A program made the position numbers and the translations under genes. This document shows positions 7,945 to 21,329 of a stretch of DNA of 23,076 nt, piece after piece. The stretch lies in assembly GCA_025289735.1 (NCBI GenBank), contig GCA_025289735.1_4764.2. One strand, written 5' to 3'. The notes under the pieces are model-generated. The model saw only the letters and a list, made by a program, of their open reading frames with translations. It was not told the origin of the DNA and ran no database searches. Source of the DNA: a phage. The first letter of the stretch is position 1, and each line of letters begins with the position of its first letter.

Positions 7945-7955
7945 CATTTTTAACA

Positions 7956-8716: not shown

Positions 8717-8731
8717 TAAGAGGCTTATATA

Positions 8732-9388: not shown

Positions 9389-9414
9389 TAAAAAGTTATC
9401 AACAAGTAGGAGAT

Positions 9415-9681: not shown

Positions 9682-9683
9682 TT

Positions 9684-10148
9684 ATGACCCCGTTTAGAGA
9701 ATCCGTTAAAGGTACATATGCGGCGGTTAAATTCACTGAGGATACACTAGACCGCATTGAAAAATTGCAGGAGTTCTACGATCTTCCTAATGCCGTTCCT
9801 CGTGATAAACTGCATAGCACTATCTTATATTCTCGTGTCTATGTTCCGTTTATCCCAGAAGAAGGGGAGAAGTTCTTAGGCTCTCTGTGTCATCTGAAAG
9901 TGTTTGAAACACAATCCGGTACTAATGCGCTTGTGCTGGCATTTGAAAGCGACTACATGCAATTCAGACACGATATCGGCACTGCTTTAGGTGCGACGTG
10001 GGATTATCCTGAATATGTACCGCATATCACGCTTTCTTATGATGTTGGTGCGCGTAAATTTGGCACTGACCTAGAGTTCGATTTAGAGATTGTCCGATCT
10101 CATGAGTATGTCGAAGATCTAGACCTGGAGTGGACGACCAAACTGTAA
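9684..10148 (+). CDS. acb1: 2H phosphoesterase, 57B/Acb1-like (anti-CBASS cyclic-oligonucleotide phosphodiesterase candidate)
   Basis: 154 aa from ATG at 9684 (the track start 9678 is TTG; GGAGG RBS 7 nt upstream of 9684). Two H-x-T-x motifs (HSTILY, HITLSY) typical of 2H phosphoesterases; T4 57B/Acb1 is about 152 aa and adjacent to 57A and gene 1. Confidence 0.65.
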   Translation: MTPFRESVKGTYAAVKFTEDTLDRIEKLQEFYDLPNAVPRDKLHSTILYSRVYVPFIPEEGEKFLGSLCHLKVFETQSGTNALVLAFESDYMQFRHDIGTALGATWDYPEYVPHITLSYDVGARKFGTDLEFDLEIVRSHEYVEDLDLEWTTKL

Positions 10149-10155
10149 TTCTATA

Positions 10156-10187
10156 CCCCGAAAAATTTTTCGGGGTTTTTTGTTTTT
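10156..10187 (+). terminator. rho-independent terminator
   Basis: CCCCGAAAAATTTTTCGGGG palindrome followed by TTTTTTGTTTTT. Confidence 0.8.
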
Positions 10188-10192
10188 AGGTG

Positions 10193-10221
10193 TTGACAAC
10201 CATAAACGACTATAGCATAAT
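10193..10221 (+). promoter_or_regulatory. early sigma70-type promoter module copy 1 (TTGACA-17-CATAAT)
   Basis: TTGACA at 10193-10198, CATAAT at 10216-10221, then leader ATCGAAACGAAACAC and AGGAG RBS before the ATG at 10260. Confidence 0.7.
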
Positions 10222-10259
10222 GCACATATCGAAACGAAACACACTTAGGAGAATCAAAA

Positions 10260-10634
10260 ATGATGATGTTTAAAGATAAATTCGAATGTCACTACACCCG
10301 TAACTTTGACTTAGTATCCCGCTACTACATTCATAAAGAAACTGGCACGCAAGTAGTTCTTGAATCTCACAGCGAAGTAGGATTCGATTCAACAAAAGTA
10401 GCAATTAGTGCTCGCTTCTGGGATAACGGCAAATTTGCTTATATCGCTTGGAACGACGACGAAAATGTAATTACAGTAGCTTTCGGTGATGACTACTACA
10501 CTAAAAAGACTTTTGATAGCAAGCCATCAAATGAATATCTGAAAGCGTATGTTCAGCACATGTTCCAACGTGTTCTGACCGGAATGGAAATCAATGTCAT
10601 GAAAGACATTGTAGACGAAGTAAAATATTCTTAA
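10260..10634 (+). CDS. hypothetical protein (124 aa)
   Basis: ORF with promoter and RBS directly upstream; no recognised homolog. Confidence 0.7.
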   Translation: MMMFKDKFECHYTRNFDLVSRYYIHKETGTQVVLESHSEVGFDSTKVAISARFWDNGKFAYIAWNDDENVITVAFGDDYYTKKTFDSKPSNEYLKAYVQHMFQRVLTGMEINVMKDIVDEVKYS

Positions 10635-10640
10635 AAATAG

Positions 10641-10669
10641 TTGACAACATGAAACGGGGGTAGTAAGAT
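10641..10669 (+). promoter_or_regulatory. early promoter module copy 2 (TTGACA-17-TAAGAT) with inverted repeat over the -10
   Basis: TTGACA 10641-10646; GGGGGTA (10656-10662) / TACCCCC (10669-10675) inverted repeat flanks the -10; leader CAAACGAAAGGAG. Near-identical to the module at 19448. Confidence 0.65.
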
Positions 10670-10700
10670 ACCCCCACAAACAAACGAAAGGAGAATCAAA

Positions 10701-10859
10701 ATGAAATTTATCGGTAAAACTTTTATGTTCGTAGCTGGTACTCTGTTTACTGCAACTCTGTTAGCTGGTGGCTTAGATATCTTTACTGCCTTTGAAACTT
10801 TCGGGTATACTGTAGCATCGGGTGCTCTCTTCGGATTGGGTTTAGCGATTAGCAAATAA
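10701..10859 (+). CDS. small hydrophobic membrane peptide (52 aa)
   Basis: ATG 7 nt after AGGAG, immediately behind promoter copy 2; translation MKFIGKTFMFVAGTLFTATLLAGGLDIFTAFETFGYTVASGALFGLGLAISK. Below the 60-aa cutoff of the ORF track. Confidence 0.6.
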   Translation: MKFIGKTFMFVAGTLFTATLLAGGLDIFTAFETFGYTVASGALFGLGLAISK

Positions 10860-10868
10860 GGTGATAAT

Positions 10869-11072
10869 ATGGAATTTGATATGGTTAAAGCAAAATTTAT
10901 GGGTAAGGATAAGAGCGGTAAAACATTTGTTATTAATAGAACATTGTTTCGCTCTGACCTTAAGTGGGTAACACAACAATTTGCGGAAGTCAACGAGGCA
11001 GTTGTGACATGCTTCGTTGATGATAAAAAAGTTTTTGAAATTGATCGTCGTGGGGTGTCTAATGATCACTAA
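10869..11072 (+). CDS. hypothetical protein (67 aa)
   Basis: ORF with GGTGA RBS; first gene of a translationally coupled chain. Confidence 0.55.
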   Translation: MEFDMVKAKFMGKDKSGKTFVINRTLFRSDLKWVTQQFAEVNEAVVTCFVDDKKVFEIDRRGVSNDH

Positions 11073-11259
11073 ACTGTTTAGTAATACTTTGTTTCTGATT
11101 GCATTTGTTTTCTTTCTGTGTCTGATGATCGGTGTTGTTACAGTTGGTAGCTATTCCGGTATTACCTTAGATGATTTTTGCAAACTTGTTTTGATCTCGT
11201 TTATACCTAGTATTCTGCTCGCTTTATGTGGTGCTTTTAAATGGCTTTGTACGCTATGA
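11062..11259 (+). CDS. small membrane protein (65 aa)
   Basis: ATG at 11062 overlaps the upstream stop; hydrophobic, two predicted TM helices. The track start 11017 is probably too far upstream. Confidence 0.55.
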   Translation: MITKLFSNTLFLIAFVFFLCLMIGVVTVGSYSGITLDDFCKLVLISFIPSILLALCGAFKWLCTL

Positions 11260-11366
11260 ACGAAATAGAACGAATGATGTTGATAGGTGGACCGGAGTTC
11301 ACTAAATTTGATGCAATTCTTATTGCGTTGGGTTTTCTTATGATCTGTTGTATGGTGGCGCTATGA
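11256..11366 (+). CDS. possible micro-protein (36 aa, hydrophobic)
   Basis: ATG at 11256 overlaps the upstream stop (ATGA); its own stop overlaps the next ATG at 11363. Manual translation MNEIERMMLIGGPEFTKFDAILIALGFLMICCMVAL. Confidence 0.35.
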   Translation: MNEIERMMLIGGPEFTKFDAILIALGFLMICCMVAL

Positions 11367-11587
11367 GTAGCATAAAATATTTTGCTTTCTTGTGTTTTAT
11401 GATGTTCTTCACATTCTTAGCATGTGTTTTCTTTACCTGGCTTGCTCATGTTGATAATGCAACCGGACCGTTTTACTTCTTCTGTGTATTGTCTGTGTTG
11501 ACTGGTGCTCTTGTTACGTGGATGATTCGAGATTGTTACGGAATGTATAAGTTTGAAAAGACTCGACCGAAATGGGGCAAACGATGA
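11363..11587 (+). CDS. small membrane protein (74 aa)
   Basis: Hydrophobic ORF, ATG at 11363 (track start 11348 is TTG). Confidence 0.55.
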   Translation: MSSIKYFAFLCFMMFFTFLACVFFTWLAHVDNATGPFYFFCVLSVLTGALVTWMIRDCYGMYKFEKTRPKWGKR

Positions 11588-11766
11588 AATTATTTGCATG
11601 GCTAATTATTTTAAATGTAATTGTTAAGACCTTTCTCGCTGGTCTGATGATGGCGCATAGCACCGAACCAGAAGAAGCATTAACGTATTTTGTTGCTTAT
11701 GTGTTGGGATTCTTGCTTACTGCGTGGATGTGTGATGAATATCGAAGAATTGAGGTAAAACCATGA
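11584..11766 (+). CDS. small membrane protein (60 aa)
   Basis: ATG at 11584 overlapping the upstream stop (ATGA); hydrophobic. Confidence 0.5.
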   Translation: MKLFAWLIILNVIVKTFLAGLMMAHSTEPEEALTYFVAYVLGFLLTAWMCDEYRRIEVKP

Positions 11767-11981
11767 AAATGACTTTTTATATCTTAGCAAGTATCATGCT
11801 TGTGATCTCTTCTGCCTTATTTGCATTTCTTACCGTTTGGGGGATCTGTACTGATGCGAAGCCGTGGGATATCGTAGAAAATACGGTTATGTTTATTATT
11901 AGTGTCATGTGTCTTTTTGATGCATTTAACTCTATCAAGGAAGAAGATCAAAAACGTCGCGAGAGAAAGCGATATAAATAA
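11763..11981 (+). CDS. small membrane protein (72 aa) with basic C-terminal tail
   Basis: Start overlaps the upstream stop; two hydrophobic segments then KEEDQKRRERKRYK. Confidence 0.55.
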   Translation: MKMTFYILASIMLVISSALFAFLTVWGICTDAKPWDIVENTVMFIISVMCLFDAFNSIKEEDQKRRERKRYK

Positions 11982-12132
11982 TAGTGAACTAAAGACAGCG
12001 CGGTTAGAATGATTTGGACGTCACCTAGCCGCATTTATTACAGCGTATGTGGGCTATCCGGTACGCTAAAGCATTCACTTGCTAGGCCGCTAGCAGGTTG
12101 GAGACAAGGAAGATTCGCTACCTTCCCTATAA

Positions 12133-12156
12133 GCCACTCTTCGGAGTGGCTTTTTT
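12133..12156 (+). terminator. rho-independent terminator (UUCG tetraloop)
   Basis: GCCACTC-TTCG-GAGTGGC followed by TTTTTT. Confidence 0.8.
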
Positions 12157-12184
12157 ATTGCCTAAAATTTTTTTAAAAAAGTTG

Positions 12185-12213
12185 TTGACACCAGATCCGG
12201 CCTATAGCATAAT
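12185..12213 (+). promoter_or_regulatory. early promoter module copy 3 (TTGACA-17-CATAAT)
   Basis: TTGACA 12185-12190, CATAAT 12208-12213, preceded by an A/T tract (12161-12180), followed by leader ATCGAAACGAAACACAC. Confidence 0.7.
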
Positions 12214-12259
12214 ACACCCATCGAAACGAAACACACTTTCTTAAACGGAGAATCAAATT

Positions 12260-12445
12260 ATGGCACGTCGCATCACTAAAGCACTGAAAGCAGTAAGCAA
12301 AGAAAACGTAGTAGCTATTCTGGTAATCTGGGGTTATAACGAAGAATCCGCTAAACAGAAAGTTGAAGCAGGGTTTGAACTGGCAGTAAAAGCAATGCCT
12401 AATGATGACTCTGTAGGACTGGCAAACTATATTGCATATTTCTGA
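12260..12445 (+). CDS. hypothetical protein (61 aa)
   Basis: ORF behind promoter copy 3 with GGAGAA RBS. Confidence 0.6.
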   Translation: MARRITKALKAVSKENVVAILVIWGYNEESAKQKVEAGFELAVKAMPNDDSVGLANYIAYF

Positions 12446-12453
12446 TAAAAGTG

Positions 12454-12482
12454 TTGACAGGGGAGGATAACTCCCCTACAAT
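12454..12482 (+). promoter_or_regulatory. early promoter module copy 4 (TTGACA-17-TACAAT) with spacer palindrome
   Basis: TTGACA 12454-12459, TACAAT 12477-12482; GGGGAG/CTCCCC inverted repeat (12460-12476) in the spacer; leader ATCAACGAAACGGGAGG. Confidence 0.65.
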
Positions 12483-12511
12483 ACAACCATCAACGAAACG
12501 GGAGGACCAAA

Positions 12512-12733
12512 ATGATTAACTTTAAAGACGCAGCAAAAGAAATTATCGACTTTGAGCGTGAACTGTTTGAGATGGAACCAAATATGAGTAAACTGGAATT
12601 GGCTAACCAGATCTGGTGCTCTAAGATGAATCCATCCGACCGCTTAGAAGTTATGAACATCGTAGGCGAAGTGAAAGGTAGTGCATTAATGAAACTCCGC
12701 GCTTGTCACGCTTACATCGCTGATCAACTATAA
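12512..12733 (+). CDS. hypothetical protein (73 aa)
   Basis: ORF behind promoter copy 4. Confidence 0.6.
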   Translation: MINFKDAAKEIIDFERELFEMEPNMSKLELANQIWCSKMNPSDRLEVMNIVGEVKGSALMKLRACHAYIADQL

Positions 12734-12742
12734 GGGGGTAAT

Positions 12743-12937
12743 ATGGGGGATAAACCATTAGTACAACTAAGAGTACGCTATAACCAGATTTTAGCATTAC
12801 TTAAAGCTGAGGGTGTAGACCCATCGGACCGCGAGGCTGTAAAAGCGTGTCTATCTGATACGGTACAACCAAAACATAACTATGCTTGTTATATGTACTT
12901 TTACAATAGGATGAATAGACCGTTTGAGTTTGAATAA
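12743..12937 (+). CDS. hypothetical protein (64 aa)
   Basis: ORF with AAGGGGG RBS. Confidence 0.55.
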   Translation: MGDKPLVQLRVRYNQILALLKAEGVDPSDREAVKACLSDTVQPKHNYACYMYFYNRMNRPFEFE

Positions 12938-12959
12938 CGTTAAGTGTTGAGGTGATACT

Positions 12960-13148
12960 ATGGAAGACCAAATTGAACAATTACGCGAATCCGCTAAAGA
13001 GCATGGTATGAGCGAAGGATTTGTTGAATGGTTTATCTCTAAAAAGGTTGATTCCTGCGGGTGCTTTAACTTCCTTACTATGTCCATTATGTGGGAAGGT
13101 TGGAAAGGTGCTGTAGAAACTGCCTTAAAAATTTTGAAAAAAGACTAA
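12960..13148 (+). CDS. hypothetical protein (62 aa)
   Basis: ORF with GAGGTGA RBS. Confidence 0.5.
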   Translation: MEDQIEQLRESAKEHGMSEGFVEWFISKKVDSCGCFNFLTMSIMWEGWKGAVETALKILKKD

Positions 13149-13156
13149 AAAAGTTG

Positions 13157-13185
13157 TTGACACGCGATAGGGTGTATAGCATAAT
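13157..13185 (+). promoter_or_regulatory. early promoter module copy 5 (TTGACA-17-CATAAT) inside an 11-bp perfect inverted repeat
   Basis: TTGACA 13157-13162, CATAAT 13180-13185; GATAGGGTGTA (13166-13176) and TACACCCTATC (13186-13196) form a perfect inverted repeat around the -10; leader CGAAACGAAACACGAA and AAGGAG RBS. Confidence 0.7.
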
Positions 13186-13228
13186 ACACCCTATCGAAAC
13201 GAAACACGAACTACTAAGGAGTATCAAA

Positions 13229-13555
13229 ATGAAACCAGTATCTGTTAAAGTTATCTTCTCTGAATCTTCTGTATTCGCTAAAGCAAACGAAGTATTCCAC
13301 TTCGAAGACTTCGAGCGTAAAGCACAGGACGCGGCAGCAAAAGCCTATGAAAGCGAATATGACAAAACTCAAATCGAGGTTACTTTCGAAAACGGCACTA
13401 CTTACGCTTGCCGCCTTGACCTGGGTGATCGTCTGTCTGGCTTCCGTCACCATGTAGAGAAGACAATCGCTTTCTCTAAAACCGAAAAAGGAAAACACTA
13501 CTTTTCTGTTTTCGGTACTAAAAATCTGGATTTCTTGAAAACTGTTTCTTTCTAA
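13229..13555 (+). CDS. hypothetical protein (108 aa)
   Basis: ATG at 13229 sits 8 nt after AAGGAG, behind promoter copy 5. The track entry 13091..13555 has an over-extended N-terminus that would cross the promoter. Confidence 0.65.
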   Translation: MKPVSVKVIFSESSVFAKANEVFHFEDFERKAQDAAAKAYESEYDKTQIEVTFENGTTYACRLDLGDRLSGFRHHVEKTIAFSKTEKGKHYFSVFGTKNLDFLKTVSF

Positions 13556-13563
13556 GGTATATT

Positions 13564-13746
13564 ATGAAAAAGATTAATTGGTTAGCGAACATAGGCGCGG
13601 TCTGCGCCTTTAACATCCTCGGATGGATAATGTTACATTTTGATGAGCGAGTTTCAAAATGTGAGGGTGCATTGATTCTCGGATCTGCTAGCATATTCAT
13701 TATGCTGTATGCAATTGCTGTTGACTTAAGCCGCGAGGATTGTTAA
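13564..13746 (+). CDS. small membrane protein (60 aa)
   Basis: Two hydrophobic segments. Confidence 0.5.
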   Translation: MKKINWLANIGAVCAFNILGWIMLHFDERVSKCEGALILGSASIFIMLYAIAVDLSREDC

Positions 13747-13747
13747 T

Positions 13748-13942
13748 ATGAATATTACTAATACTGCCATCGGATTTTCGAGCGCCTTTGCTAGTTTCTT
13801 TGCGCTGGTCTGTATGTTTGTTTTTATTCCTGTTGTATATCTTGGATATTGTGATATTGAAATTGCATTGATTGCTGGGATCTATATGTGGGTTGCGGTC
13901 TTTGTTCTTTCTGTTATAATGTGCAAGATTATTGACCATTGA
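13748..13942 (+). CDS. small membrane protein (64 aa)
   Basis: Strongly hydrophobic, two predicted TM helices. Confidence 0.5.
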   Translation: MNITNTAIGFSSAFASFFALVCMFVFIPVVYLGYCDIEIALIAGIYMWVAVFVLSVIMCKIIDH

Positions 13943-13964
13943 TTAACTATGTGAGGATTATATT

Positions 13965-14285
13965 ATGAGCAAACTGTTTGAAACTCCGCGTGAAATTCTG
14001 ATTGACAAGCTGAAAGAACGTGGTTTTAAAATCAAAGATGCAACCAAATATAGTCGAATTGATGAAATTAAGTTGCATTCTCTTGATGAACTGGTAGAAT
14101 ATGTTGCGGCGGTGGCTGATCCGCAGTTTGATGTGATTGTAGGTGACGTTGAATATCTCGATAATGTATATTCATTCTTCACTTATGGTAAAATTGTGTC
14201 TGTGAAAATATCATTCTGTGAAAATGTGGAGGTGCTTGCTAGTGAACCAGAAAAACCAACTGACAACGGTCCTACGGCAGCGTAA
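13965..14285 (+). CDS. hypothetical protein (106 aa)
   Basis: ORF with GAGGA RBS. Confidence 0.55.
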   Translation: MSKLFETPREILIDKLKERGFKIKDATKYSRIDEIKLHSLDELVEYVAAVADPQFDVIVGDVEYLDNVYSFFTYGKIVSVKISFCENVEVLASEPEKPTDNGPTAA

Positions 14286-14556
14286 CAAGGAAGACCGTCT
14301 GATTTATGCGCTGGCGGTTATCCTTGAAAAAGAATTACCGGATCTTGATGTAGTTTTTACTGACCGACCAGTAGGCCAACGTTACGGAGGATATGACAGC
14401 CTAGTTTATCCATCATATAGCATTGAAATGTGGGTAGAAGATTTTAAAAACTTGGCTGATACATCTAAACCGCTTTATTTGTGGGATGTTGAGTATAATT
14501 GCGATCCTAACTGGCCTGGCATTAATGTTTATGCGTCTATGACTTTAAAGGTGTGA
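14224..14556 (+). CDS. hypothetical protein (about 105-110 aa)
   Basis: Overlaps the end of the preceding ORF in another frame. Start uncertain: ATG 14224 or GTG 14242 (GGAGG RBS at 14229-14233). Confidence 0.5.
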   Translation: MWRCLLVNQKNQLTTVLRQRNKEDRLIYALAVILEKELPDLDVVFTDRPVGQRYGGYDSLVYPSYSIEMWVEDFKNLADTSKPLYLWDVEYNCDPNWPGINVYASMTLKV

Positions 14557-14558
14557 TA

Positions 14559-14717
14559 ATGGTTGAACAAATGTTAACTTCAATGGTAATGGCTTTCTGT
14601 GTGGGTGTTGTTCTGTTTGCGATGATTCCAAAAGACCGAATGAATCTGCTTGTTGCTGTGTGTTTGGGTGTGGTTAGCGGTTGGTGTGGAATCGTTCTAG
14701 AACACGCTCTGCGATGA
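14559..14717 (+). CDS. small membrane peptide (52 aa)
   Basis: ATG at 14559 just after the upstream stop; manual translation MVEQMLTSMVMAFCVGVVLFAMIPKDRMNLLVAVCLGVVSGWCGIVLEHALR. Confidence 0.45.
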   Translation: MVEQMLTSMVMAFCVGVVLFAMIPKDRMNLLVAVCLGVVSGWCGIVLEHALR

Positions 14718-14725
14718 TTAACAAT

Positions 14726-14750
14726 GCGGGTAGGGTAATGTACTACCCGC
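14726..14750 (+). other. stable stem-loop (GCGGGTAG / CTACCCGC), no T-run
   Basis: 8-bp perfect stem with 9-nt loop between the small ORFs and the membrane-protein/endolysin cluster. Confidence 0.5.
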
Positions 14751-14778
14751 ACTAAATTAGCTCACTGGAGGGCTTTCT

Positions 14779-14967
14779 ATGGCGTTTTGTCTATGGTTGC
14801 TTATAGTATGCTTTGTAATTGGTTTATGCTTCTATACTGGCGTATTCTGTTTTGTCGCCTGGATAGACGGCGGATTCTCTAATATCATTTTGCTTGCAGG
14901 ATCAATTGCCTCGTTTCTGTTTATTTGGCTATTTTCATATTTGATTGGTGAATGGGATTTATTATGA
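14779..14967 (+). CDS. small membrane protein (62 aa)
   Basis: GGAGGG RBS; two hydrophobic helices. Confidence 0.55.
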   Translation: MAFCLWLLIVCFVIGLCFYTGVFCFVAWIDGGFSNIILLAGSIASFLFIWLFSYLIGEWDLL

Positions 14968-15143
14968 ACAAATATATGTTTTGGGCGACCATTGCCTATG
15001 TTGTGATTGCGGTAGTATGGGGATTCTGTGTTATTGTCGCTTCTCTGATCTGGTGGGAATCACTTGGTGCGGGTTGTCTGATTAGCGGCGCATCATGTCT
15101 TATCACTGGCGTGATTGTTGGTTTTCTTGTGTCGGAGGCTTGA
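14964..15143 (+). CDS. small membrane protein (59 aa)
   Basis: ATG 14964 overlaps the upstream stop; hydrophobic. Confidence 0.5.
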   Translation: MNKYMFWATIAYVVIAVVWGFCVIVASLIWWESLGAGCLISGASCLITGVIVGFLVSEA

Positions 15144-15145
15144 CA

Positions 15146-15361
15146 ATGGTTTTCTTCGGTCTTATTATAATGGTGCTTAATGTCATTTGTGGCGTTGCTA
15201 TGTTAGCTATGGCCTTTACTGTTCCTATGTCTGTTGATAGCGCCGCATCCGTAGGTGTGTTGGGAATTGTAAACCTGTTTACCGCCCTAGCATGTTGGAT
15301 CACCGGACGCGATGAGGTAATGTATTACTTTTATAAACGTAAACAGAGAAAAGGAAAATAA
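15146..15361 (+). CDS. small membrane protein (71 aa) with basic C-terminus
   Basis: ATG 15146 with GGAGG RBS at 15134-15138; two TM segments then KRKQRKGK. Confidence 0.5.
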   Translation: MVFFGLIIMVLNVICGVAMLAMAFTVPMSVDSAASVGVLGIVNLFTALACWITGRDEVMYYFYKRKQRKGK

Positions 15362-15362
15362 T

Positions 15363-15554
15363 ATGAAATTTGCATTTGGTTTTACCGTGATGTTGATTAT
15401 TGCTCTGAGTATGTGTACCGGAATGCTTGTATTTGGTCTTGCAAACGGATTTAGCATTTATAATAATCAGTGGGTTGATTGGGGAATGGTTGTCGTTAAT
15501 GCGATCCTGATTGGTGCTAATACAAGAAATCTATGCAGGATCGCCGGAATCTAA
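15363..15554 (+). CDS. small membrane protein (63 aa)
   Basis: Hydrophobic ORF directly upstream of the endolysin gene. Confidence 0.5.
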   Translation: MKFAFGFTVMLIIALSMCTGMLVFGLANGFSIYNNQWVDWGMVVVNAILIGANTRNLCRIAGI

Positions 15555-15582
15555 ATATTATCACTCACAAAGGGGGTGAATA

Positions 15583-15972
15583 ATGTTTAAATTATCTCAA
15601 AGAAGCAAAGATCGGCTTGTTGGTGTACATCCTGATCTGGTAAAAGTCGTTCATCGTGCGTTAGAACTGACTCCGGTCGATTTTGGTATTACGGAAGGTG
15701 TGCGTAGTCTAGAAACGCAAAAGAAATATGTTGCGGAAGGTAAATCTAAGACTATGAAATCTCGTCATCTTCACGGTTTCGCGGTTGACGTTGTAGCGTA
15801 TCCGAAAGATAAGGATACATGGAACATGAAATACTACCGCATGATCGCGGATGCATTTAAACAAGCTGGTCGAGAATTGGGTGTTCCTGTTATCTGCGGT
15901 GTTGATTGGGTTACTTTTAAAGACGGACCGCATATGGAACTCGATAAAAAGGTATATCCAGACCCGGTATAA
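15583..15972 (+). CDS. endolysin, L-alanyl-D-glutamate peptidase (peptidase M15, T5-type)
   Basis: 129 aa; similar to T5 endolysin as recalled (VHPDL.KVV.RALELTPVDFGI.EGVR; SRHLHGFAVDV with H-x6-D zinc site; DGPHMEL). Occupies the position of T4 gene e but belongs to a different enzyme family. Confidence 0.8.
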   Translation: MFKLSQRSKDRLVGVHPDLVKVVHRALELTPVDFGITEGVRSLETQKKYVAEGKSKTMKSRHLHGFAVDVVAYPKDKDTWNMKYYRMIADAFKQAGRELGVPVICGVDWVTFKDGPHMELDKKVYPDPV

Positions 15973-15981
15973 CTAAAATCA

Positions 15982-16006
15982 AGCCAGCTTAATCGCTGGC
16001 TTTGTG
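15982..16006 (+). terminator. probable terminator hairpin after the endolysin gene
   Basis: AGCCAGC-TTAAT-CGCTGGCT followed by TTGTG; weak T-run. Confidence 0.45.
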
Positions 16007-16017
16007 AGGATTATAAA

Positions 16018-16593
16018 ATGGCTTTTAAATATTGGGATGAATCCCTACAAAACGAGATAAAACTTAGATATGCTCATATAGAGGGTATCTTATATTATAG
16101 AGTCGATAGTAAAGCTATCAAAGGACGACCATTAGGGAGTAGATATAAACACGGCGATTTAGTTAAAGTCAGAACAAATAAAGATGGTCATCTTAGATTT
16201 TGGCATAGTAGAGATGACGGTCTTCCTAGAGTTCATCTATTCGTGCATAGGGTTGTTTGGTTTCTAGAACATGGGACGCAAGTTAGATTAATTGATCATA
16301 TTGACGGTAATCCTGCGAATAACAATCCTCCAAATCTTAGGGAGGCAACCGACGCGCAAAATCAACATAATAGAAAGAAGAAGTCTAAAAAGTTTTCTAG
16401 TGTGTATAAGGGTGTTAGTAAGTCTAACAGGAAGGATTTGCGTAAGAAATGGAGAGCTAGTATAATGGTCAACCTAAAAAGACATGTTCTTGGACAATAT
16501 GACACAGAAATCGAAGCTGCAATCGCTTATGATAATGCAGCTAGGAAATTTTATGGAGAATATGCTCTATTGAATTTCCCAGATCCAAAATAA
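16018..16593 (+). CDS. HNH homing endonuclease with C-terminal AP2 DNA-binding domain
   Basis: HNH core HRVVWFLEHGTQVRLIDHIDGNPANNNPPNLREATDAQNQHN; AP2-like YKGVS...WRASI...GQYDTEIEAAIAYDNAARKFYG. AGA/AGG/ATA-rich codon usage contrasts with neighbouring genes. Confidence 0.8.
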   Translation: MAFKYWDESLQNEIKLRYAHIEGILYYRVDSKAIKGRPLGSRYKHGDLVKVRTNKDGHLRFWHSRDDGLPRVHLFVHRVVWFLEHGTQVRLIDHIDGNPANNNPPNLREATDAQNQHNRKKKSKKFSSVYKGVSKSNRKDLRKKWRASIMVNLKRHVLGQYDTEIEAAIAYDNAARKFYGEYALLNFPDPK

Positions 16594-16655
16594 AATATTA
16601 ACCATCAACGGGGAGACAATCTAAGGATCTCTCCCCGTTCACTGGAGACTTTACC

Positions 16656-17147
16656 ATGAATATTGACATTGATTTAGAATTAGAAAGTAAAGATTTGATT
16701 TATGCTGCGTGTGTATCTGCCGTAAATGGCATCATAGAACGCCGTAAGCGACGCAATTTTGCTGATGACCTAGATTCCATTGTCTCAATCAATTTAGGCC
16801 GTCAGACAGGGCATACAGACGCTACAATCAAGTTATATGACCATTATACGCGAAAGGGCTATAGTGTCTTTATCGTTTCAACGACGCGGGAACATGCCAA
16901 AACGATCCGAGATCGCGGTCGCGGTGAAAATGTAAATATTTCAAATGTAGATTGTACGTCTATCCGAACTTTCCTGAATCCGATCACATGGCGAGGTCGT
17001 AGTCTTGACAAAACAATTTTTATCCTAGATACTACCATGCGCGGATTTACTGACAGCGTATTGCAGTTTTTAGAAGTAAATCGACTTAGTGTTGGGATGG
17101 GTAATGTAGAAGACCAACCTATTTTCATTGGCTTAGGTATTAACTAA
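16656..17147 (+). CDS. hypothetical protein (163 aa)
   Basis: ORF with GGAG RBS; no recognised homolog. Confidence 0.6.
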   Translation: MNIDIDLELESKDLIYAACVSAVNGIIERRKRRNFADDLDSIVSINLGRQTGHTDATIKLYDHYTRKGYSVFIVSTTREHAKTIRDRGRGENVNISNVDCTSIRTFLNPITWRGRSLDKTIFILDTTMRGFTDSVLQFLEVNRLSVGMGNVEDQPIFIGLGIN

Positions 17148-17272
17148 TGAAAAATAAAGATAGCGTAGCTCGTCGATTTCGTGCTACAATTAAAAAGAAT
17201 CGTAAAATCCAACCTGATAAACTCTATGGTGTTTTGGTTGGTAAAATTAATGACGAACGTCCTGATCTATAA
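17147..17272 (+). CDS. possible small basic protein (41 aa)
   Basis: ATG overlaps the upstream stop (TAATG); translation MKNKDSVARRFRATIKKNRKIQPDKLYGVLVGKINDERPDL. Not in the ORF track (below 60 aa). Confidence 0.35.
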   Translation: MKNKDSVARRFRATIKKNRKIQPDKLYGVLVGKINDERPDL

Positions 17273-17282
17273 GAGGTGAATT

Positions 17283-17699
17283 ATGGAATTTAAAGCAATT
17301 CAAATCATGAAAGGTGAGCATAAAGGTACTATTATTGGTGGACACTTCGCGCCTATGATTCTGGTATCCGAACCGAAAGCACTGATCGGCGCTAAAGTAA
17401 TTGTTAGTAAAACTTTCGCAGAAGACCATGTGATCACCGCAGAAGACGTCGATTCGCTGGCACTGCACACAACTAGCTTCCGTCCGGTGATTGTAGATAA
17501 TGGTGCTCCTGTTGTCGAAGGAGGTCAGCACGCGAATATCAATGTGATGAGTCGCGATCTTCTTCTTGATGCGGTTGCTAATCCTGATAAGTATCCGCAA
17601 CTAACCATTCGCGTTAGCGGATATGCCGTAAGATTCAATAGTCTGACTCCAGACCAACAACGTGATGTTATTTCGCGCACCTTTACGGAAGCAATGTAA
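17283..17699 (+). CDS. grcA: autonomous glycyl radical cofactor (GrcA/YfiD-like)
   Basis: 138 aa; C-terminal [60 protein letters not shown] is near-identical to E. coli GrcA and contains the RVSGY glycyl-radical motif. AAGAGGTGA RBS. Confidence 0.85.
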
Positions 17700-17705
17700 A
17701 TTTTT

Positions 17706-17738
17706 AAGCCAATCCGAAAGGGTTGGCTTTATTTTTAT
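17706..17738 (+). terminator. rho-independent terminator after the grcA-like gene
   Basis: AGCCAATCC-GAAA-GGGTTGGCT followed by TTATTTTTAT. Confidence 0.75.
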
Positions 17739-17746
17739 GAGGTGAT

Positions 17747-18277
17747 ATGATGATTAAAAGATATTGTGATGACCATCCGGTCGAAGAGTGGAAAGTGATT
17801 GAGGATCTTTATCCGTTAACTCATTTTGAGATTAGTTCTCATGGTAGGGTTAGAAACTCCATAACAGGAAAATACTTGTCTATTGTAGACACGAAAGATT
17901 ATACTAAAGTTTCTTTTAAACATCGCCCCAGCAAAACACATAGAACGTTAAACATGCATAGAATGATGGCGGTTGCGTTTATTCCGAATCCAAACAACTA
18001 CCGTGTAGTTAACCATAAGGACGGAAACAAACGAAACTATGATCTTTATAATCTTGAATGGACTACAGACACACGAAATCTTGTTCATGCAAAGGAAGAA
18101 GGATTAAACAAAAATTGGGGCGAGAACCACGGAAACGCAAAACTAACAGATGAACAGGTGAAAGAGATTTTAGATTCTCCGCATATGAAGGGCGTAGAGC
18201 TTGCAAGAAAATATAATGTTTCACCGTCTGCTATTTGTCAGATTCGAAAAGGCGTTCGACGTAACGTAAAATACTAA
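17747..18277 (+). CDS. HNH homing endonuclease (NUMOD4-like N-terminus, HNH_3 core, C-terminal HTH)
   Basis: HFEISSHGRVRN (NUMOD4-like); HRMMAVAFIPNP..VNHKDGNKRNYDLYNLEW (HNH); NAKLTDEQVKEI...ARKYNVSPSAICQIRKG (DNA-binding). Confidence 0.8.
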   Translation: MMIKRYCDDHPVEEWKVIEDLYPLTHFEISSHGRVRNSITGKYLSIVDTKDYTKVSFKHRPSKTHRTLNMHRMMAVAFIPNPNNYRVVNHKDGNKRNYDLYNLEWTTDTRNLVHAKEEGLNKNWGENHGNAKLTDEQVKEILDSPHMKGVELARKYNVSPSAICQIRKGVRRNVKY

Positions 18278-18290
18278 TGAGGGTTTAATT

Positions 18291-18989
18291 ATGCATACAA
18301 TGGTTAAAATGGTCTTCGGATCTCACTTGTACGGCCTTGATACTGAAAATTCAGATAAAGATTATCGTGGTATCTTTGTTCCGACTGCTAAAGAAATTAT
18401 CTTAGGATCGATGAAAGAACACTATGACCAAAGCACTAGCGGTCAAGGTATCAAGAACACCAAAGACGATATTGATGTTAATATGTTCAGTCTAAAACGG
18501 TTTATCAATCTGGCATGTAAAGGCGATATCGGCGCTATTGACATGGTGCACGCGCCTAGTAACATGTTGATTGAATCCTCCAGAGAATGGGAATACATCC
18601 GAACACATCGCGATAAATTCTATCATGTTGGGATGTGGGGTTTGTCTGGCTATCTCAAAAAGCAGGTAGCCAAATCTGAAAAGTATTTCAGTAACTGGAA
18701 AGATCTTTCTCATGCTCTGCGTGTTGGTTATCAGCTACTTGAAATCTATCAGACAGGTGATCTACAATTCCCGCTCGCGCGACGTTCTTCTATTTTAGCG
18801 TGTAAGTTAGGAGAAAGAACCTTTGATAATGTGCGGGAAGAATTGAAAGATCTCTACGAGCGTGTTAAACTCGCGCGTGAAGAGGCAAAGAAAAACGGTA
18901 TGCCGGAAGAACCAGATGTTGACTTTTGGAAAGATTTATTAGAATATATTCATCTGACCGTTGTTCTGGAACACTATACCCGTGGTTAG
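18291..18989 (+). CDS. Pol-beta superfamily nucleotidyltransferase (RlaP/YcgL-like), function unknown
   Basis: 232 aa; N-terminal VFGSHLYGLDTENSDKDYRGIF fits the hG[GS]-x(9-13)-DxD nucleotidyltransferase signature. Confidence 0.6.
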   Translation: MHTMVKMVFGSHLYGLDTENSDKDYRGIFVPTAKEIILGSMKEHYDQSTSGQGIKNTKDDIDVNMFSLKRFINLACKGDIGAIDMVHAPSNMLIESSREWEYIRTHRDKFYHVGMWGLSGYLKKQVAKSEKYFSNWKDLSHALRVGYQLLEIYQTGDLQFPLARRSSILACKLGERTFDNVREELKDLYERVKLAREEAKKNGMPEEPDVDFWKDLLEYIHLTVVLEHYTRG

Positions 18990-19010
18990 TTAATATAGGA
19001 GATTAAGAAA

Positions 19011-19205
19011 ATGAAAGTTTATACCAATAGCAATAAAGGACAAGATATTACGCCAGGAAAGATGTATGATTTTACCCCGACACGAGACTACGAAAATCCA
19101 CCGACAATCGGTTACATCAAAGATGATATAGGTTATCGTATTACGATCCTTCTTGATGGTGGATGTTCTCATCTTCGCGGTGATAAATGGGAGTTAGTAC
19201 CATGA
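19011..19205 (+). CDS. small protein, paralog family member A (64 aa)
   Basis: Shares Y.(F/Y)TP...GYI.DD.G..I.I.L...C.HL.G..W.L with the next two ORFs. Confidence 0.6.
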   Translation: MKVYTNSNKGQDITPGKMYDFTPTRDYENPPTIGYIKDDIGYRITILLDGGCSHLRGDKWELVP

Positions 19206-19447
19206 TGTATGTGATGACACCTTATAGTAACCGCAAGTATATTACACCAAATACACTGTATGAATATACACCACATGAAAGATTTTCGAATAGTGGTTAT
19301 ATCCGTGATGATAAGGGACACCAGATTTTTATTTGTCTTAAAAATTGTGCACACTTAGACGGTCGAACCTGGACACTGATCGAAGAACCAAAACAACCTG
19401 AGAATAAAGGTCTTTGGAATGTGCTAAAAAAATTCTTGAAAAAGTAG
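19202..19447 (+). CDS. small protein, paralog family member B (81 aa)
   Basis: ATG 19202 overlapping the upstream stop; motif ITPNTLYEYTP...GYIRDDKGHQIFICLKNCAHLDGRTW. Confidence 0.6.
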   Translation: MMYVMTPYSNRKYITPNTLYEYTPHERFSNSGYIRDDKGHQIFICLKNCAHLDGRTWTLIEEPKQPENKGLWNVLKKFLKK

Positions 19448-19476
19448 TTGACAGCATGAAACGGGGGTAGTAATAT
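19448..19476 (+). promoter_or_regulatory. early promoter module copy 6 (TTGACA-17-TAATAT) with inverted repeat over the -10
   Basis: TTGACA 19448-19453; GGGGGTA/TACCCCC inverted repeat (19463-19482); leader ATCGAAACAACAAAGGAG. Near-identical to copy 2. Confidence 0.65.
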
Positions 19477-19507
19477 ACCCCCATCGAAACAACAAAGGAG
19501 TATTAAA

Positions 19508-19843
19508 ATGAGTGTTAAAGAAGTGTTTGTTTATACCGACTATGACGGGTGCGCCTATCTCACTGCTGGAAAACTTTACCGTTGTGAGATTATTCATGGT
19601 ACGCTAGGTCGAATTATGTGCGATCCTATTACAAAATTGTGGAAAAATAATCCTAGTGAGCGAGAAACTCTTATTAACCTAGATCCAGACGGTTGTTCAC
19701 ACTTGGGCTATAGAAAATGGCATATAGTTACACATGATGCTTATGGTATTCATCTTGCTACTAAAGAATTAACTATTGACAAGTTCAAGTTTAAAGAAAT
19801 CCCGTTTGTATACTGGCTTCGCAATTTGTTTAAGAAAGGATAA
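19508..19843 (+). CDS. small protein, paralog family member C (111 aa)
   Basis: Contains DPDGCSHLGYRKWHIV, matching the C.HL.G..W motif of the two upstream paralogs, with an extended C-terminus. Confidence 0.6.
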   Translation: MSVKEVFVYTDYDGCAYLTAGKLYRCEIIHGTLGRIMCDPITKLWKNNPSERETLINLDPDGCSHLGYRKWHIVTHDAYGIHLATKELTIDKFKFKEIPFVYWLRNLFKKG

Positions 19844-19847
19844 TAAA

Positions 19848-20270
19848 ATGGAAACAATTAACGTACATGTTCGCCGTAGTAAGCTGCGTAGATTCTTCGA
19901 AACCGAAATGCGCAAAACCAATGCGCAGATCAAAGAAAAGTGTTTGAATGATGGTTATGGTGAGTATATTTTCATTCGCTTTAGTCCGCATATGATCGAC
20001 CGTCTAACCGATCGTCATATCGATGAACATAAGACAATGGAACTATTCAATAAGATAGAAACTCGTTTGCCAGAGATCTTCGACTTCCTGAAAATGGAAG
20101 ACCGACCGAATCGATTAGAAATTACTGACGGTAACATGTGGATCGGGATGACAGTAGATCTAATCGAAGAGGGTAAGCCATATCACGGTCTATGCTGCCG
20201 AATGATTATAGAGAATCCAAAACGACTGGCGGGTAAAATGTCGGCGGTTGTTTTGAAGGTAGACCAATAA
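19848..20270 (+). CDS. regB: RegB sequence-specific endoribonuclease
   Basis: 140 aa from ATG 19848 (the track start 19776 is over-extended). Similar to T4 RegB as recalled: V.IRR.KLRR.FE.E.R..N..I.E, RLEITDGN.W.G.TV, CRM.I.N..RL.GK.S..V.K. Confidence 0.8.
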   Translation: METINVHVRRSKLRRFFETEMRKTNAQIKEKCLNDGYGEYIFIRFSPHMIDRLTDRHIDEHKTMELFNKIETRLPEIFDFLKMEDRPNRLEITDGNMWIGMTVDLIEEGKPYHGLCCRMIIENPKRLAGKMSAVVLKVDQ

Positions 20271-20293
20271 TGGAAATTGGTTAAAAATAATGC

Positions 20294-20322
20294 TTGACTT
20301 TCTGGTGATAGGGCTATATTAT
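20294..20322 (+). promoter_or_regulatory. sigma70-like promoter (TTGACT-17-TATTAT)
   Basis: TTGACT 20294-20299, TATTAT 20317-20322, upstream of the signal-peptide lytic transglycosylase gene. An overlapping TGCTTGA resembles a MotA box but its spacing is off. Confidence 0.45.
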
Positions 20323-20356
20323 GGAATCAGAAAGTTAAGCCAAACAGGAGAAATTA

Positions 20357-20947
20357 ATGTTAAAAGTTCTAAAAGCGATAGTATTGAGTCTGTCACTAGC
20401 CGTTGGTGCTACACACGCATCGACTAGCGCACCGATCAAAAAAGCGCCGATAGACAACTTTACAGCACACCAACTAGATAATTTACATTTCGCCTATCAA
20501 TACGGCGAGCAATTCGAGAAAAGCGGTAAGTTGAAAAAGTACCATCCGAATATTCGCTATAACGGAAAGGGTTTAGGTCACATCCTGGCGGGTATCGCAT
20601 GGCAAGAATCAAGCGCGGGTGCAAACTTAGCACCAAAGAAAAATCATCATGCTTATGGATTATTTCAAAATTACCTTAAAACGGTGAAAGCGAAAAATGC
20701 AAAGCGCGGTGTTAAAATGAGTGATCGCCAGACTATCAACTTTATCATGAATCGCGAGGTTTCTGCATTCTACGCGATGGATGAGTTAGCATACTGGCTG
20801 GATGTTCGAAACGGTAATATCCGACTCGCGCTAGCTTCTTACAATGCTGGATGGAACTATAAAGCCGGGTTAGGCTATGCTGATGACGTACTAAAAAAGG
20901 CTAACCATCTAAAGAGTAAAGGCATTCTTAAGACTAAACGCTATTGA
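20357..20947 (+). CDS. secreted lytic transglycosylase (SLT domain) with Sec signal peptide
   Basis: N-terminal MLKVLKAIVLSLSLAVGATHA-ST signal peptide; SLT motifs AGIAWQESS (catalytic E-S), YGLFQ and ASYNAG. Confidence 0.75.
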   Translation: MLKVLKAIVLSLSLAVGATHASTSAPIKKAPIDNFTAHQLDNLHFAYQYGEQFEKSGKLKKYHPNIRYNGKGLGHILAGIAWQESSAGANLAPKKNHHAYGLFQNYLKTVKAKNAKRGVKMSDRQTINFIMNREVSAFYAMDELAYWLDVRNGNIRLALASYNAGWNYKAGLGYADDVLKKANHLKSKGILKTKRY

Positions 20948-20954
20948 GGAATAT

Positions 20955-21314: not shown

Positions 21315-21329
21315 TGAGAGGTTTATATT

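Follow-up and report, generated by a model that had tools for sequence, protein, structure and literature searches.

The window, the whole 23,076-nt stretch of phage DNA analysed here, comes from a Krischvirus, that is, an RB49/JSE-like T4-type phage. Five ORFs, all on the plus strand, lie between 14779 and 15972: four small membrane-protein genes, smp1 to smp4, followed by an endolysin gene (Table 1). Their sizes agree with the JSE and RB49 annotations. The gene order of the window is 3, 1, 57A, 57B ... endolysin, vs.8, vs.6 ... regB, vs.1, vs, tk, as compared with 3, 1, 57A, 57B ... e, ipIII, ipII, denV, vs.8, vs.6 ... in T4, and the position and neighbours of the endolysin gene agree with those in RB49, JSE and ECD7.

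The first-pass annotation placed an M15 endolysin at the position of T4 gene e, which is true at the level of the interval, from 57B to vs.8. It also described the four upstream genes as overlapping; they are tightly packed, but the sole overlap is that of smp1 with smp2, 4 nt long (ATGA), and the remaining smp genes are separated by gaps of 2 nt and 1 nt. On the other side, the homing endonuclease gene, an insertion that separates the endolysin gene from vs.8, is present in only some Krischviruses, and the weak terminator-like hairpin that follows the endolysin gene overlaps the SD of the endonuclease gene.

Table 1. Genes and sequence features of the endolysin locus and of the region upstream (window coordinates)
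Feature	Position	Strand	Remarks
PeSL-type early promoter, predicted	13157..13195	+	TTGACA 13157-13162, 17-nt spacer, CATAAT 13180-13185
smpA, 60 aa, two predicted TMDs	13564..13746	+	same early unit; PHROG 16425, no function assigned there
smpB, 64 aa, two predicted TMDs	13748..13942	+	locus polymorphic
smpC, 52 aa, two predicted TMDs	14559..14717	+	RB49 ORF107c TMHMM 5-23, 30-47 (PMC1524935)
G+C-rich hairpin, stem GCGGGTAG / CTACCCGC	14725..14751	+	smpC-smp1 spacer; no U-tract
smp1, 62 aa, two TMDs, without basic residues	14779..14967	+	PHROG 19354, no function assigned there
smp2, 59 aa, two TMDs	14964..15143	+	start overlaps smp1 stop; PHROG 16151, no function assigned there
smp3, 71 aa, two TMDs and basic C-terminal tail YKRKQRKGK	15146..15361	+	PHROG 15232, no function assigned there
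smp4, 63 aa, one strong and one weaker TMD	15363..15554	+	directly upstream of endolysin
RNA hairpin, predicted	15548..15593	+	5' arm 15548-15566 (promoter region), 3' arm 15574-15593 (SD and AUG)
Late-promoter-like octamer TCTAAATA	15550..15557	+	25 nt upstream of endolysin ATG
Endolysin, 129 aa, Zn-dependent M15C L-alanyl-D-glutamate peptidase	15583..15972	+	no signal peptide or TMD
Hairpin AAGCCAGC / GCTGGCTT, weak terminator-like	15981..16002	+	3' of endolysin stop
HNH-AP2 homing endonuclease gene, free-standing	16018..16593	+	Pfam HNH_3, AP2; PHROG 99

A known endolysin in place of T4 lysozyme

The endolysin matches Pfam PF13539 (Peptidase_M15_4; E 4.8e-8, 33.9 bits against a curated cut-off of 25), PHROG 465 (endolysin; E 5.5e-63) and, in the PDB, entries 23ri (E 2.3e-77), 8q2g (E 2.9e-74) and the T5 endolysin 2mxz (E 3.4e-20). 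The Zn-binding residues H62, D69 and H117 and the conserved active-site W109, whose roles have been described (PMC10487532), are all present in the alignment. These matches and the M15 alignment bear out the earlier identification of an L-Ala-D-Glu peptidase of the T5-endolysin family rather than a T4-type muramidase. The enzyme is non-orthologous to T4 lysozyme, which has been replaced by an M15 peptidase in the same 57B-vs.8 interval.

The likeness to T5 endolysin noted in the first-pass annotation holds for the family but does not extend to closest kinship. EndoT5 (2mxz) shares family, fold class and, according to the literature, the bond cleaved, yet its identity to the window enzyme is only about 38%, as is that of T5-like phage endolysins. 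The nearest relatives are the endolysins of P2-like and Sashavirus phages (about 58-61% identity) and Serratia ChiX (PDB 5opz, E 1.9e-32). EndoRB49 is also without the Ca2+ regulation known for EndoT5 (PMC10487532).

Judged by its sequence, the enzyme is the known EndoRB49/LysECD7 (23ri, 8q2g), essentially the same protein with a variant C-terminus. It is identical to 23ri over residues 1-103, while the last ~26 residues represent another allele, ICGVDWVTFKDGPHMELDKKVYPDPV as against EWGGDW(T/V)SFKDG(P/V)H(L/F)QLPHSKYPDP. This C-terminal allele (ICGVDW...DKKVYPDPV) is common to JSE, Whisky, phiS and one metagenomic lineage. Published work documents cleavage of the L-Ala-D-Glu bond by the RB49 and ECD7 alleles, and EndoRB49/LysECD7 has been the subject of many papers, with solved structures under PDB 23ri and 8q2g.

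Small membrane proteins in a predicted early transcription unit

The interval from 57B to the endolysin gene has 22 genes, of which 13 are hydrophobic ORFs of 36-74 aa; smp1-4 are the last four of these. TMHMM results published for RB49 include 13 ORFs between ORF103c and ORF124c, almost every one of them predicted to have two helices (PMC1524935 Additional file 2). The adjacency of smp1-4 to the endolysin gene is therefore not special, since they are four of 13 tiny membrane ORFs spread over this hyperplastic region, and the two-TMD architecture, basic tails included, recurs kilobases away in the tiny ORFs at 11363 and 11763. We considered the 13 tiny ORFs as a duplicated family and rejected the idea, as the best E value in an all-against-all BLASTP comparison was 0.1.

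The first-pass annotation was right to describe four tiny membrane proteins (59-71 aa) upstream of the endolysin: each of the four is strongly hydrophobic and is predicted to span the membrane with two helices. These two-helix calls agree with those published from TMHMM for RB49 ORF103, 104 and 106, the helices of the smp4 counterpart, ORF103c, being placed at residues 5-27 and 37-54 (PMC1524935 Additional file 2). The start of smp3 was taken as 15146, since a strong GGAGG precedes it and no SD precedes 15095, the start of a longer ORF (15095-15361) considered as a dual-start form of this gene. An 11-of-12 sigma-70 match at the smp2/smp3 junction (15140-15168) is probably fortuitous, because it is absent in divergent relatives and transcription from it would start inside smp3.

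All four smp genes are genuine genes rather than chance ORFs. Intact copies of smp2, smp3 and smp4 occur in all 13 of the genomes compared, as well as in the metagenomic relatives L014-L017, and their pN/pS values (0.23, 0.08 and 0.25, respectively, against 0.04 for the endolysin) point to purifying selection at the protein level. Constraint is strongest in smp3, whose C-terminal half does not vary within the clade; TMD2 and the tail are unchanged even in relatives that are only 80% identical. In smp1 (pN/pS 0.39) constraint is weak: ELT4 has lost the gene, Whisky and PHB13 carry frameshifts in it (together 3 of 13 isolates), and ECD7 has an altered version.

A natural deletion of 1,505 bp, seen in contigs of ~165 kb from independent metagenomes, removes smpB through smp2 together with the N-terminal half of smp3. 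In the deletion variant smp4 remains, but of smp3 only the C-terminal half (TMD2 and tail), intact smp3 being lost. Both smp1 and smp2 are dispensable. All 59 Krischvirus records retain the four genes together with the endolysin gene, as do metagenomic relatives with smp3 80-87% identical; such conservation is weak evidence of linkage, because all these genomes are closely related.

Transcription of smp1-4 is predicted to begin well upstream. The PeSL-type promoter at 13157 lies 34 nt upstream of an LPD25-like gene, its stem-loop (13166-13195) overlapping the -10 hexamer, and is the predicted start of an early unit that would run through smp1-4 into the endolysin gene. It corresponds to RB49 Pe:57746, predicted by Nolan et al. 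2006 (PMC1524935); the next early promoter in those RB49 predictions, Pe:52389, lies downstream of nrdC.11. PeSLs, with both their promoter and their terminator activity, have been described (PMC2839356), and novel ORFs appear to be co-expressed with early genes in T4-like phages (PMC1524935). From 13747 to 15550 we found no late-promoter-like motif; the sole one follows smp4. GGAG (RegB-type) SD motifs, tried as a marker of early genes, are present in smp1 and smp3 but proved uninformative, because the late gene gp34 has one as well.

Gene content and structure within the unit vary among strains. In place of smpB, RB49 and Phi1 have two different small membrane genes. The G+C-rich hairpin at 14725-14751 has a conserved stem and a variable loop in divergent relatives, and some records annotate it as a "terminator"; it is possibly an attenuator, a processing/stability element or a degenerate PeSL stem-loop. 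As a PeSL promoter it was rejected, its -35-like and -10-like hexamers being 29 nt apart. The smp genes resemble the PeSL cassettes of RB49/phi1 (Arbiol et al. 2010, PMC2839356) in being small, same-orientation, non-essential ORFans with strain-variable gene content and a sigma-70 promoter and stem-loop upstream in an AT-rich intergenic setting (13157-13195, for the whole unit). They differ from those cassettes in that they are not individually PeSL-flanked, with no PeSL directly before smp1.

Homology searches gave no functional family for the small proteins. Against Pfam, NCBIfam and PHROGs, smp1-4 produced sub-threshold noise or function-less families only, and no holin family appeared in any of the three, with Pfam taken up to E 0.1. 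An exhaustive profile HMM search of 1.84 billion representatives with smp3 returned nothing beyond its own cluster and a single N-terminal fragment, and word-indexed searches of 5.8 billion proteins returned only relatives at least 80% (smp3) or at least 86% (smp4) identical. The homologues of smp3 and smp4 are confined to Krischvirus-like contigs. The smp proteins show no similarity to T or to the P2-like holin encoded beside the closest non-Krischvirus homologue of the endolysin.

Spanin architecture was likewise absent. An i-spanin is taken here to have a TMD at its N-terminus and, after it, a mostly helical periplasmic domain of at least some 70 aa; all four smp proteins have two TMDs, with loops of at most 12 residues and no soluble or periplasmic domain. 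For an o-spanin we looked for a lipoprotein signal with the lipobox [LVI][ASTVI][GAS]C, which is absent in smp1-4: the closest approaches, LSMC in smp4, LIVC and IGLC in smp1 and NVIC in smp3, all violate position -1. With holins of any class the four proteins share their small size and the presence of at least one TMD.

A hairpin leader in front of the endolysin gene

With late promoters placed at -13 to -6 (PMC1524935), the octamer TCTAAATA predicts a late +1 at about 15563, within the 5' arm of the leader hairpin. This hairpin would form only on transcripts that come from upstream, because the predicted late start lies inside its 5' arm; the folding of a transcript starting at 15564 is no better than that of shuffles. 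A scan of the whole window against Rfam gave zero matches.

The arrangement resembles that of T4 gene e, where experiments document an RBS-masking hairpin with a late promoter within it (McPheeters et al. 1986, reviewed in PMC3014915). We folded the T4 e leader as well and obtained the layout seen in the window, with a late-promoter-like octamer in the 5' arm and SD and AUG in the 3' arm. The two leaders differ in having no sequence similarity, and in that the window has one putative motif versus two in T4, TCTAAATA versus TATAAATA. Klebsiella phage KP27 (Slopekvirus), which also has an M15 endolysin, shows the same leader layout in unrelated sequence. PMC3014915 assigns "no apparent gene e" to RB49, phi-1, RB43 and RB16 and does not analyse them. 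A putative leader gate in front of a non-orthologous endolysin may be a new observation.

The leader hairpin may instead attenuate transcription or have arisen by chance, the endolysin being translated from an early polycistronic mRNA together with smp1-4. Such a view is consistent with the modest fold, at -12.5 kcal/mol (z -2.8), with a leader that offers almost no sequence variation for a covariation test, and with the octamer itself: TCTAAATA is non-consensus, with a C at -12 that is rare in RB49 late promoters according to Nolan et al. (PMC1524935), and that work, which predicted 17 late promoters for RB49, does not include the site. Other observations argue for a gate. Opening the leader from -14 to +3 around the endolysin start codon would cost 13.6 kcal/mol, the highest value among 40 genes of the window, and divergent relatives retain the hairpin in a stronger form, an A-to-G change pairing with the promoter C. 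Identical or near-identical octamers precede late genes in JSE, TCTAAATA being found before gp37 and CCTAAATA before the t holin gene, and the same layout recurs in T4 e and in KP27, where the fold reaches a z of -5.0. We therefore regard an attenuator or chance structure as possible but rather doubtful, and prefer to view the hairpin as a gate: the endolysin would be expressed separately from smp1-4, because the hairpin that holds its SD and AUG carries a late-promoter-like motif in the 5' arm.

Lysis route and the role of the small proteins

The first-pass annotation contrasted the locus with T4, which uses the distant holin T. This contrast falls away, as a T holin at 95% identity or more is found in 59 records, exactly as many as there are Krischvirus records. 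The JSE protein has 218 aa, matches Phage_holin_T (E 1.6e-60) and is encoded 3' of the tail-fibre genes; JSE also has rI (beside tk) and the pseT.3/pseT.2 spanins (beside pseT), and JSE, Phi1 and RB49 have been placed in T4 spanin families (PMC6139136). The T holin, rI and spanin genes were seen in relatives 96-99% identical, at loci that the window does not cover. The system is like that of T4 in its dispersed plan, with the endolysin in the e interval, T after the tail fibres, rI by tk and the spanins by pseT, and differs in the exchange of the muramidase e for a non-homologous peptidase and in the absence of ipII, ipIII and denV between endolysin and vs.8. We infer that lysis follows the usual T4 pathway with the enzyme exchanged: the soluble M15 endolysin would accumulate in the cytoplasm and cross through the holes of the T-type holin to reach the wall, while RI would serve in lysis inhibition and the PseT.3/PseT.2 spanins in disruption of the outer membrane.

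Since the phage, like its relatives, presumably keeps the holin, antiholin and spanins of T4, smp1-4 are most likely early accessory genes. The earlier suggestion of a holin/antiholin or spanin-like cassette finds no support, given the retention of T, rI and spanins in relatives, the lack of any family match or spanin architecture, the placement in a predicted early unit and the natural losses. We consider it probable that smp1-4 are early inner-membrane accessory ORFans rather than a lysis cassette, in a phage that follows the T4 lysis route with a swapped and separately expressed endolysin. We would reconstruct the timing of expression, the part played by the hairpin and what smp1-4 do for the phage as follows. 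Early transcription of the region would proceed from sigma-70 PeSL promoters, the nearest at 13157, and the smp proteins would most likely insert early into the host inner membrane as helical hairpins, where they could then be conditionally useful in host takeover, phage exclusion or counter-defence, like T4 Imm or Sp. On the early read-through mRNA the SD and AUG of the endolysin would be locked in the leader hairpin. Late transcription from TCTAAATA would start inside the 5' arm and so yield a translatable endolysin mRNA, as for T4 e.

Class II holins and pinholins, such as S21 68, have two TMDs and a basic cytoplasmic C-terminus. On paper smp3 resembles them, with its ~70 aa, two TMDs and highly basic C-terminal tail, and smp3 and smp4 especially could be lysis-timing accessories, either a pinholin-like or class II holin with its antiholin or modulators of T, which arrived or evolved along with the replacement endolysin and are co-inherited with it. 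The smp genes adjoin the endolysin gene in the same orientation with minimal spacers, the block is conserved throughout the 59 Krischvirus records as well as in divergent metagenomic relatives, smp3 is about as constrained as the endolysin, and the deletion variant spares smp4 along with TMD2 and the tail of smp3. This explanation nevertheless appears unlikely. The genus has a complete set of T, RI and spanins, the smp proteins have neither detectable homology to holin families nor homologues outside the genus, and the same architecture with basic tails is found in the tiny ORFs at 11363 and 11763. The smp genes lie in a predicted early unit that lacks a late-promoter motif, and masking of the endolysin TIR on read-through mRNA would uncouple its expression from theirs. 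Nor do related enzymes keep such company: upstream of the KP27 M15 endolysin are soluble proteins, without small membrane proteins, and the P2-like phages with the closest endolysin homologues use an unrelated 107-aa holin. Compared with class II holins, smp3 is without a family relationship, an upstream late promoter or a dual-start motif with a usable SD, and in its intact form it is missing from natural deletion variants.

It is also unlikely that some or all of smp1-4 are debris of the hyperplastic region, PeSL-shuffled ORFan cassettes with little or no function whose place beside the endolysin gene is accidental. RB49-type hyperplastic regions are rich in non-essential ORFans (PMC2839356), and the disruptions of smp1, its comparatively high pN/pS, the natural 1.5-kb deletion and the polymorphic gene content at the smpB locus are consistent with this account. 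It does not fit well with smp2-4, which are intact in all isolates compared and in the metagenomic relatives and are under purifying selection, or with the invariant C-terminal half of smp3. A role for smp1-4 as early accessory membrane proteins remains the reading we favour.

Taken as a whole, the finding is ordinary and largely known. Re-identifying the endolysin adds little, because LysECD7/EndoRB49 is a heavily studied enzybiotic scaffold. Tiny membrane genes beside an endolysin in a T4-type genome are not evidence for a lysis cassette; their adjacency is not telling, because such genomes scatter their lysis genes and fill plastic early regions with ORFs of this kind. As conserved, genus-restricted membrane proteins, smp3 and smp4 are candidates for superinfection exclusion, host range or counter-defence.

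The leader invites a broader proposal, that T4-like phages re-create an e-type expression gate whenever lysozyme is swapped for an unrelated endolysin, and we judge the chances of this to be about even. If it is true, the gate rather than the enzyme would be the conserved feature of the locus, and the CTAAATA-type motifs before the endolysin gene, t and gp37 would be functional late promoters in Krischvirus. An e-like gate before a non-orthologous endolysin in two genera would then mean that the logic of expression outlasts the gene it controls.

Endolysin identity and genomic setting

The window belongs to the genus Krischvirus (RB49, JSE, Phi1, phiS and others; megablast, 93-99% identity, 59 records). 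The endolysin and the four small membrane-protein genes 5' of it, smp1-4, are tightly packed and agree with the JSE and RB49 annotations. The sizes also fit the 59-71 aa of an earlier description of four overlapping genes; the sole overlap among the five genes is one of 4 nt between smp1 and smp2. The proposed location of the endolysin at the position of T4 lysozyme gene e is borne out at the level of the interval, as 57B-endolysin-vs.8 in both T4 and the window phage.

Coordinates of the endolysin, the small genes before it and the early promoter element (PeSL, early sigma-70 promoter plus stem-loop)
Feature	Window position	Strand	Remark
smp1	14779-14967	+	62 aa
smp2	14964-15143	+	59 aa
smp3	15146-15361	+	71 aa
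smp4	15363-15554	+	63 aa
endolysin	15583-15972	+	129 aa
PeSL element	13157-13195		upstream of LPD25-like gene; textbook form

The endolysin matches Pfam Peptidase_M15_4 above the curated cut-off and PHROG 465 'endolysin' (5.5e-63), is near-identical to the solved chains 23ri and 8q2g (E about 1e-75), and aligns with Serratia ChiX (E 1.9e-32) and T5 endolysin 2mxz (E 3.4e-20). It contains H62, D69 and H117, the Zn ligands of EndoRB49, and the conserved W109 (PMC10487532), and its pN/pS is 0.04 across 13 genomes. This enzyme is already well known, as EndoRB49 and LysECD7. The label "T5-type" given by the first-pass annotation is right as to family, but its closest kin beyond Krischvirus are Sashavirus and P2-like phage endolysins (58-61% identity by tblastn), ahead of KP27 (47%) and T5-like phages (about 38%).

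The 3' end of the endolysin gene, its last roughly 80 nt, is a mosaic (region including the downstream endonuclease gene, window 15892-16593). An HNH-AP2 homing endonuclease gene lies 3' of the endolysin in the window, JSE, Whisky and phiS; in these carriers roughly a third of the nucleotides of this end differ from the RB49, Phi1 and ECD7 allele, and the end is nearly the same as in a metagenomic lineage without the endonuclease. Of the 26 C-terminal residues, 14 are altered (EWGGDW to ICGVDW among them), with W109 and H117 kept; the pattern looks like a flank replacement linked to the endonuclease. The KP27 endolysin also has a homing endonuclease directly 3'. Further downstream, the vs.6 orthologue (17283-17699) encodes a 138-aa Gly_radical protein, a GrcA/YfiD-type autonomous glycyl-radical cofactor, an identity already known for T4 vs.6.

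On a larger scale, window 1-7944 (gp33, dsbA, rnh, gp34, gp35) aligns collinearly to JSE 145-152.5 kb, and 7991-23076 to JSE 65.6-50.5 kb in reverse complement; the junction at 7945-8125 separates gp35 (6805-7944) and gp3 (8126-8716). JSE has about 108 bp of this sequence (7991-8098) twice, once upstream of gp36 and once upstream of gp3, as inverted copies. The break in collinearity and these copies imply that, compared with JSE and RB49, about 87 kb has been inverted by recombination between short inverted late-promoter cassettes. The junction is shared only with Krischvirus LF73P4 (OZ035795.1), and may be an assembly artefact.

Transcription and the endolysin leader

The endolysin spacer is 28 nt and holds TCTAAATA at 15550-15557, spaced from the ATG much like the motifs that precede gp34 and gp3. 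In JSE the same octamer stands before gp37, a late gene, and CCTAAATA stands before t; within the 46-kb locus that strand has seven NNTAAATA motifs, four of them a short way upstream of late genes. In the predicted RNA fold, 15548-15566 base-pairs with 15574-15593 and so buries the Shine-Dalgarno sequence (SD) and AUG (-12.5 kcal/mol, z -2.8), and a transcript from 15564 folds into no structure that buries them. Opening -14 to +3 of the endolysin costs 13.6 kcal/mol, the highest among 40 window genes (the second is 9.8). The hairpin is kept and stronger in divergent relatives, in which an A-to-G change at codon 3 creates a pair with the motif's C.

The same gate design is documented for T4 gene e (PMC3014915; T4 leader also folded here). 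RB49 and phi-1 were given there as having 'no apparent gene e', and were therefore not examined. The KP27 leader (L018 2941-2996, upstream of endolysin KP27_166) shares this layout in an unrelated sequence: it folds at -24.9 kcal/mol (z -5.0) with CATAAATA inside the structure, its outer helix is formed by ACCUCUU and the SD AAGAGGU, and for its inner hairpin the record annotates only a putative terminator. The predictions of Nolan et al. include no late promoter at the endolysin leader site, and the same authors call C at -12, as in this motif, rare among RB49 late promoters (PMC1524935). The endolysin is probably expressed late via an e-like gate, from a predicted promoter.

The PeSL element comprises a stop codon, an A-rich tract, TTGACA, a 17-nt spacer, CATAAT and a stem-loop across the -10, and is the counterpart of the predicted RB49 early promoter Pe:57746, after which the published predictions place the next early promoter only downstream of nrdC.11. 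PeSLs are sigma-70 promoter/terminator cassettes typical of RB49/phi1 hyperplastic regions, which hold many non-essential ORFans (PMC2839356), and novel ORFs are apparently co-expressed with early genes (Nolan et al., PMC1524935). Because of this promoter, this co-expression and the absence of any late-promoter-like octamer from 13747 to 15550, we infer early expression of smp1-4. A hairpin between smpC and smp1 (14725-14751) has a conserved 8-bp G+C stem and no U-tract; the loop has been exchanged, in part for its own reverse complement, in the divergent metagenomic lineage L014-L016.

Small membrane proteins and the lysis question

Hydropathy places two membrane helices in each of smp1-4, in line with the TMHMM predictions published for their RB49 orthologues (PMC1524935 Additional file 2); as first described, these are real membrane proteins. 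Among 13 genomes, smp2, smp3 and smp4 are intact in all (pN/pS 0.23, 0.08 and 0.25), while smp1 (0.39) is lost by deletion in ELT4, carries a frameshift in Whisky and PHB13 and has an altered form in ECD7. Metagenomic relatives with smp3 at only 80-87% identity retain the order 62-59-71-63-129 aa, and the second helix and basic tail of smp3 are invariant in them.

A 1,505-bp natural deletion (window 13726-15230), found in contigs that come from independent metagenomes and are about 165-166 kb long, is a partial knock-out already made by nature. At an 8-bp microhomology, CTGTTGA[C/T] (L021 4089-4096, also L022), it removes smpB, two soluble ORFs, smpC, smp1 and smp2, and joins smpA in frame to the C-terminal half of smp3, giving a chimera with three predicted helices and the smp3 tail; smp4 and the endolysin stay in place. 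smp1 and smp2 are dispensable, and smp3 and smp4 are conserved.

The smpB locus itself is polymorphic (window 13748-13942 vs RB49 ORF111 + ORF110, L003 330-724), with one 64-aa membrane gene in the window, JSE, Whisky and phiS, a variant thereof in SSG23 and Makalu3, and two different 65-aa membrane genes in RB49, Phi1, E26, ELT4, PHB13, ECD7 and W115.

The first-pass annotation had likened smp1-4 to a holin/antiholin or spanin-like cassette, a reading that is not supported. JSE encodes a 218-aa Phage_holin_T protein (E 1.6e-60) directly after the tail-fibre genes, and tblastn finds this T holin at >= 95% identity in 59 records, the number of Krischvirus records; the T homologue elsewhere in the genome that it was suggested to look for is thus present in relatives of the window phage. 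JSE also encodes the antiholin rI, adjoining tk, and the spanins pseT.3/pseT.2, and the T4 spanin families of a spanin census include JSE, Phi1 and RB49 (PMC6139136). The smp1-4 proteins have neither a periplasmic domain nor a canonical lipobox, and so do not match spanin architecture; searches of Pfam, NCBIfam and PHROGs matched them to no holin family and no family of known function. Homologues of smp3 and smp4 were confined to Krischvirus-like contigs, and an exhaustive smp3 profile search of 1.84 billion representatives returned only its own cluster and one N-terminal fragment.

The small proteins are not special to the endolysin, since 13 of 22 genes in the 57B-endolysin interval (10701-15554) are tiny hydrophobic ORFs of 36-74 aa, mostly with two helices. 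Three of them, at 11363 and 11763, several kb upstream, and at 15146 (smp3), have a common layout of two helices and a basic tail; between the 13, neither paralogy nor sequence similarity was detectable. In KP27, a T4-like phage with an M15 endolysin near vs.1, soluble proteins take the upstream place of the small membrane ones. A role of smp3 and smp4 in lysis timing seems improbable.

The original observation is correct, and its interpretation needs revision: the pathway is most likely ordinary T4 lysis in which a known endolysin, not orthologous to T4 lysozyme, fills the e slot, and smp1-4 are genus-restricted membrane ORFans of a hyperplastic region. Our best guess is that smp3 and smp4 would serve accessory functions directed at the host membrane, such as exclusion, takeover or counter-defence.
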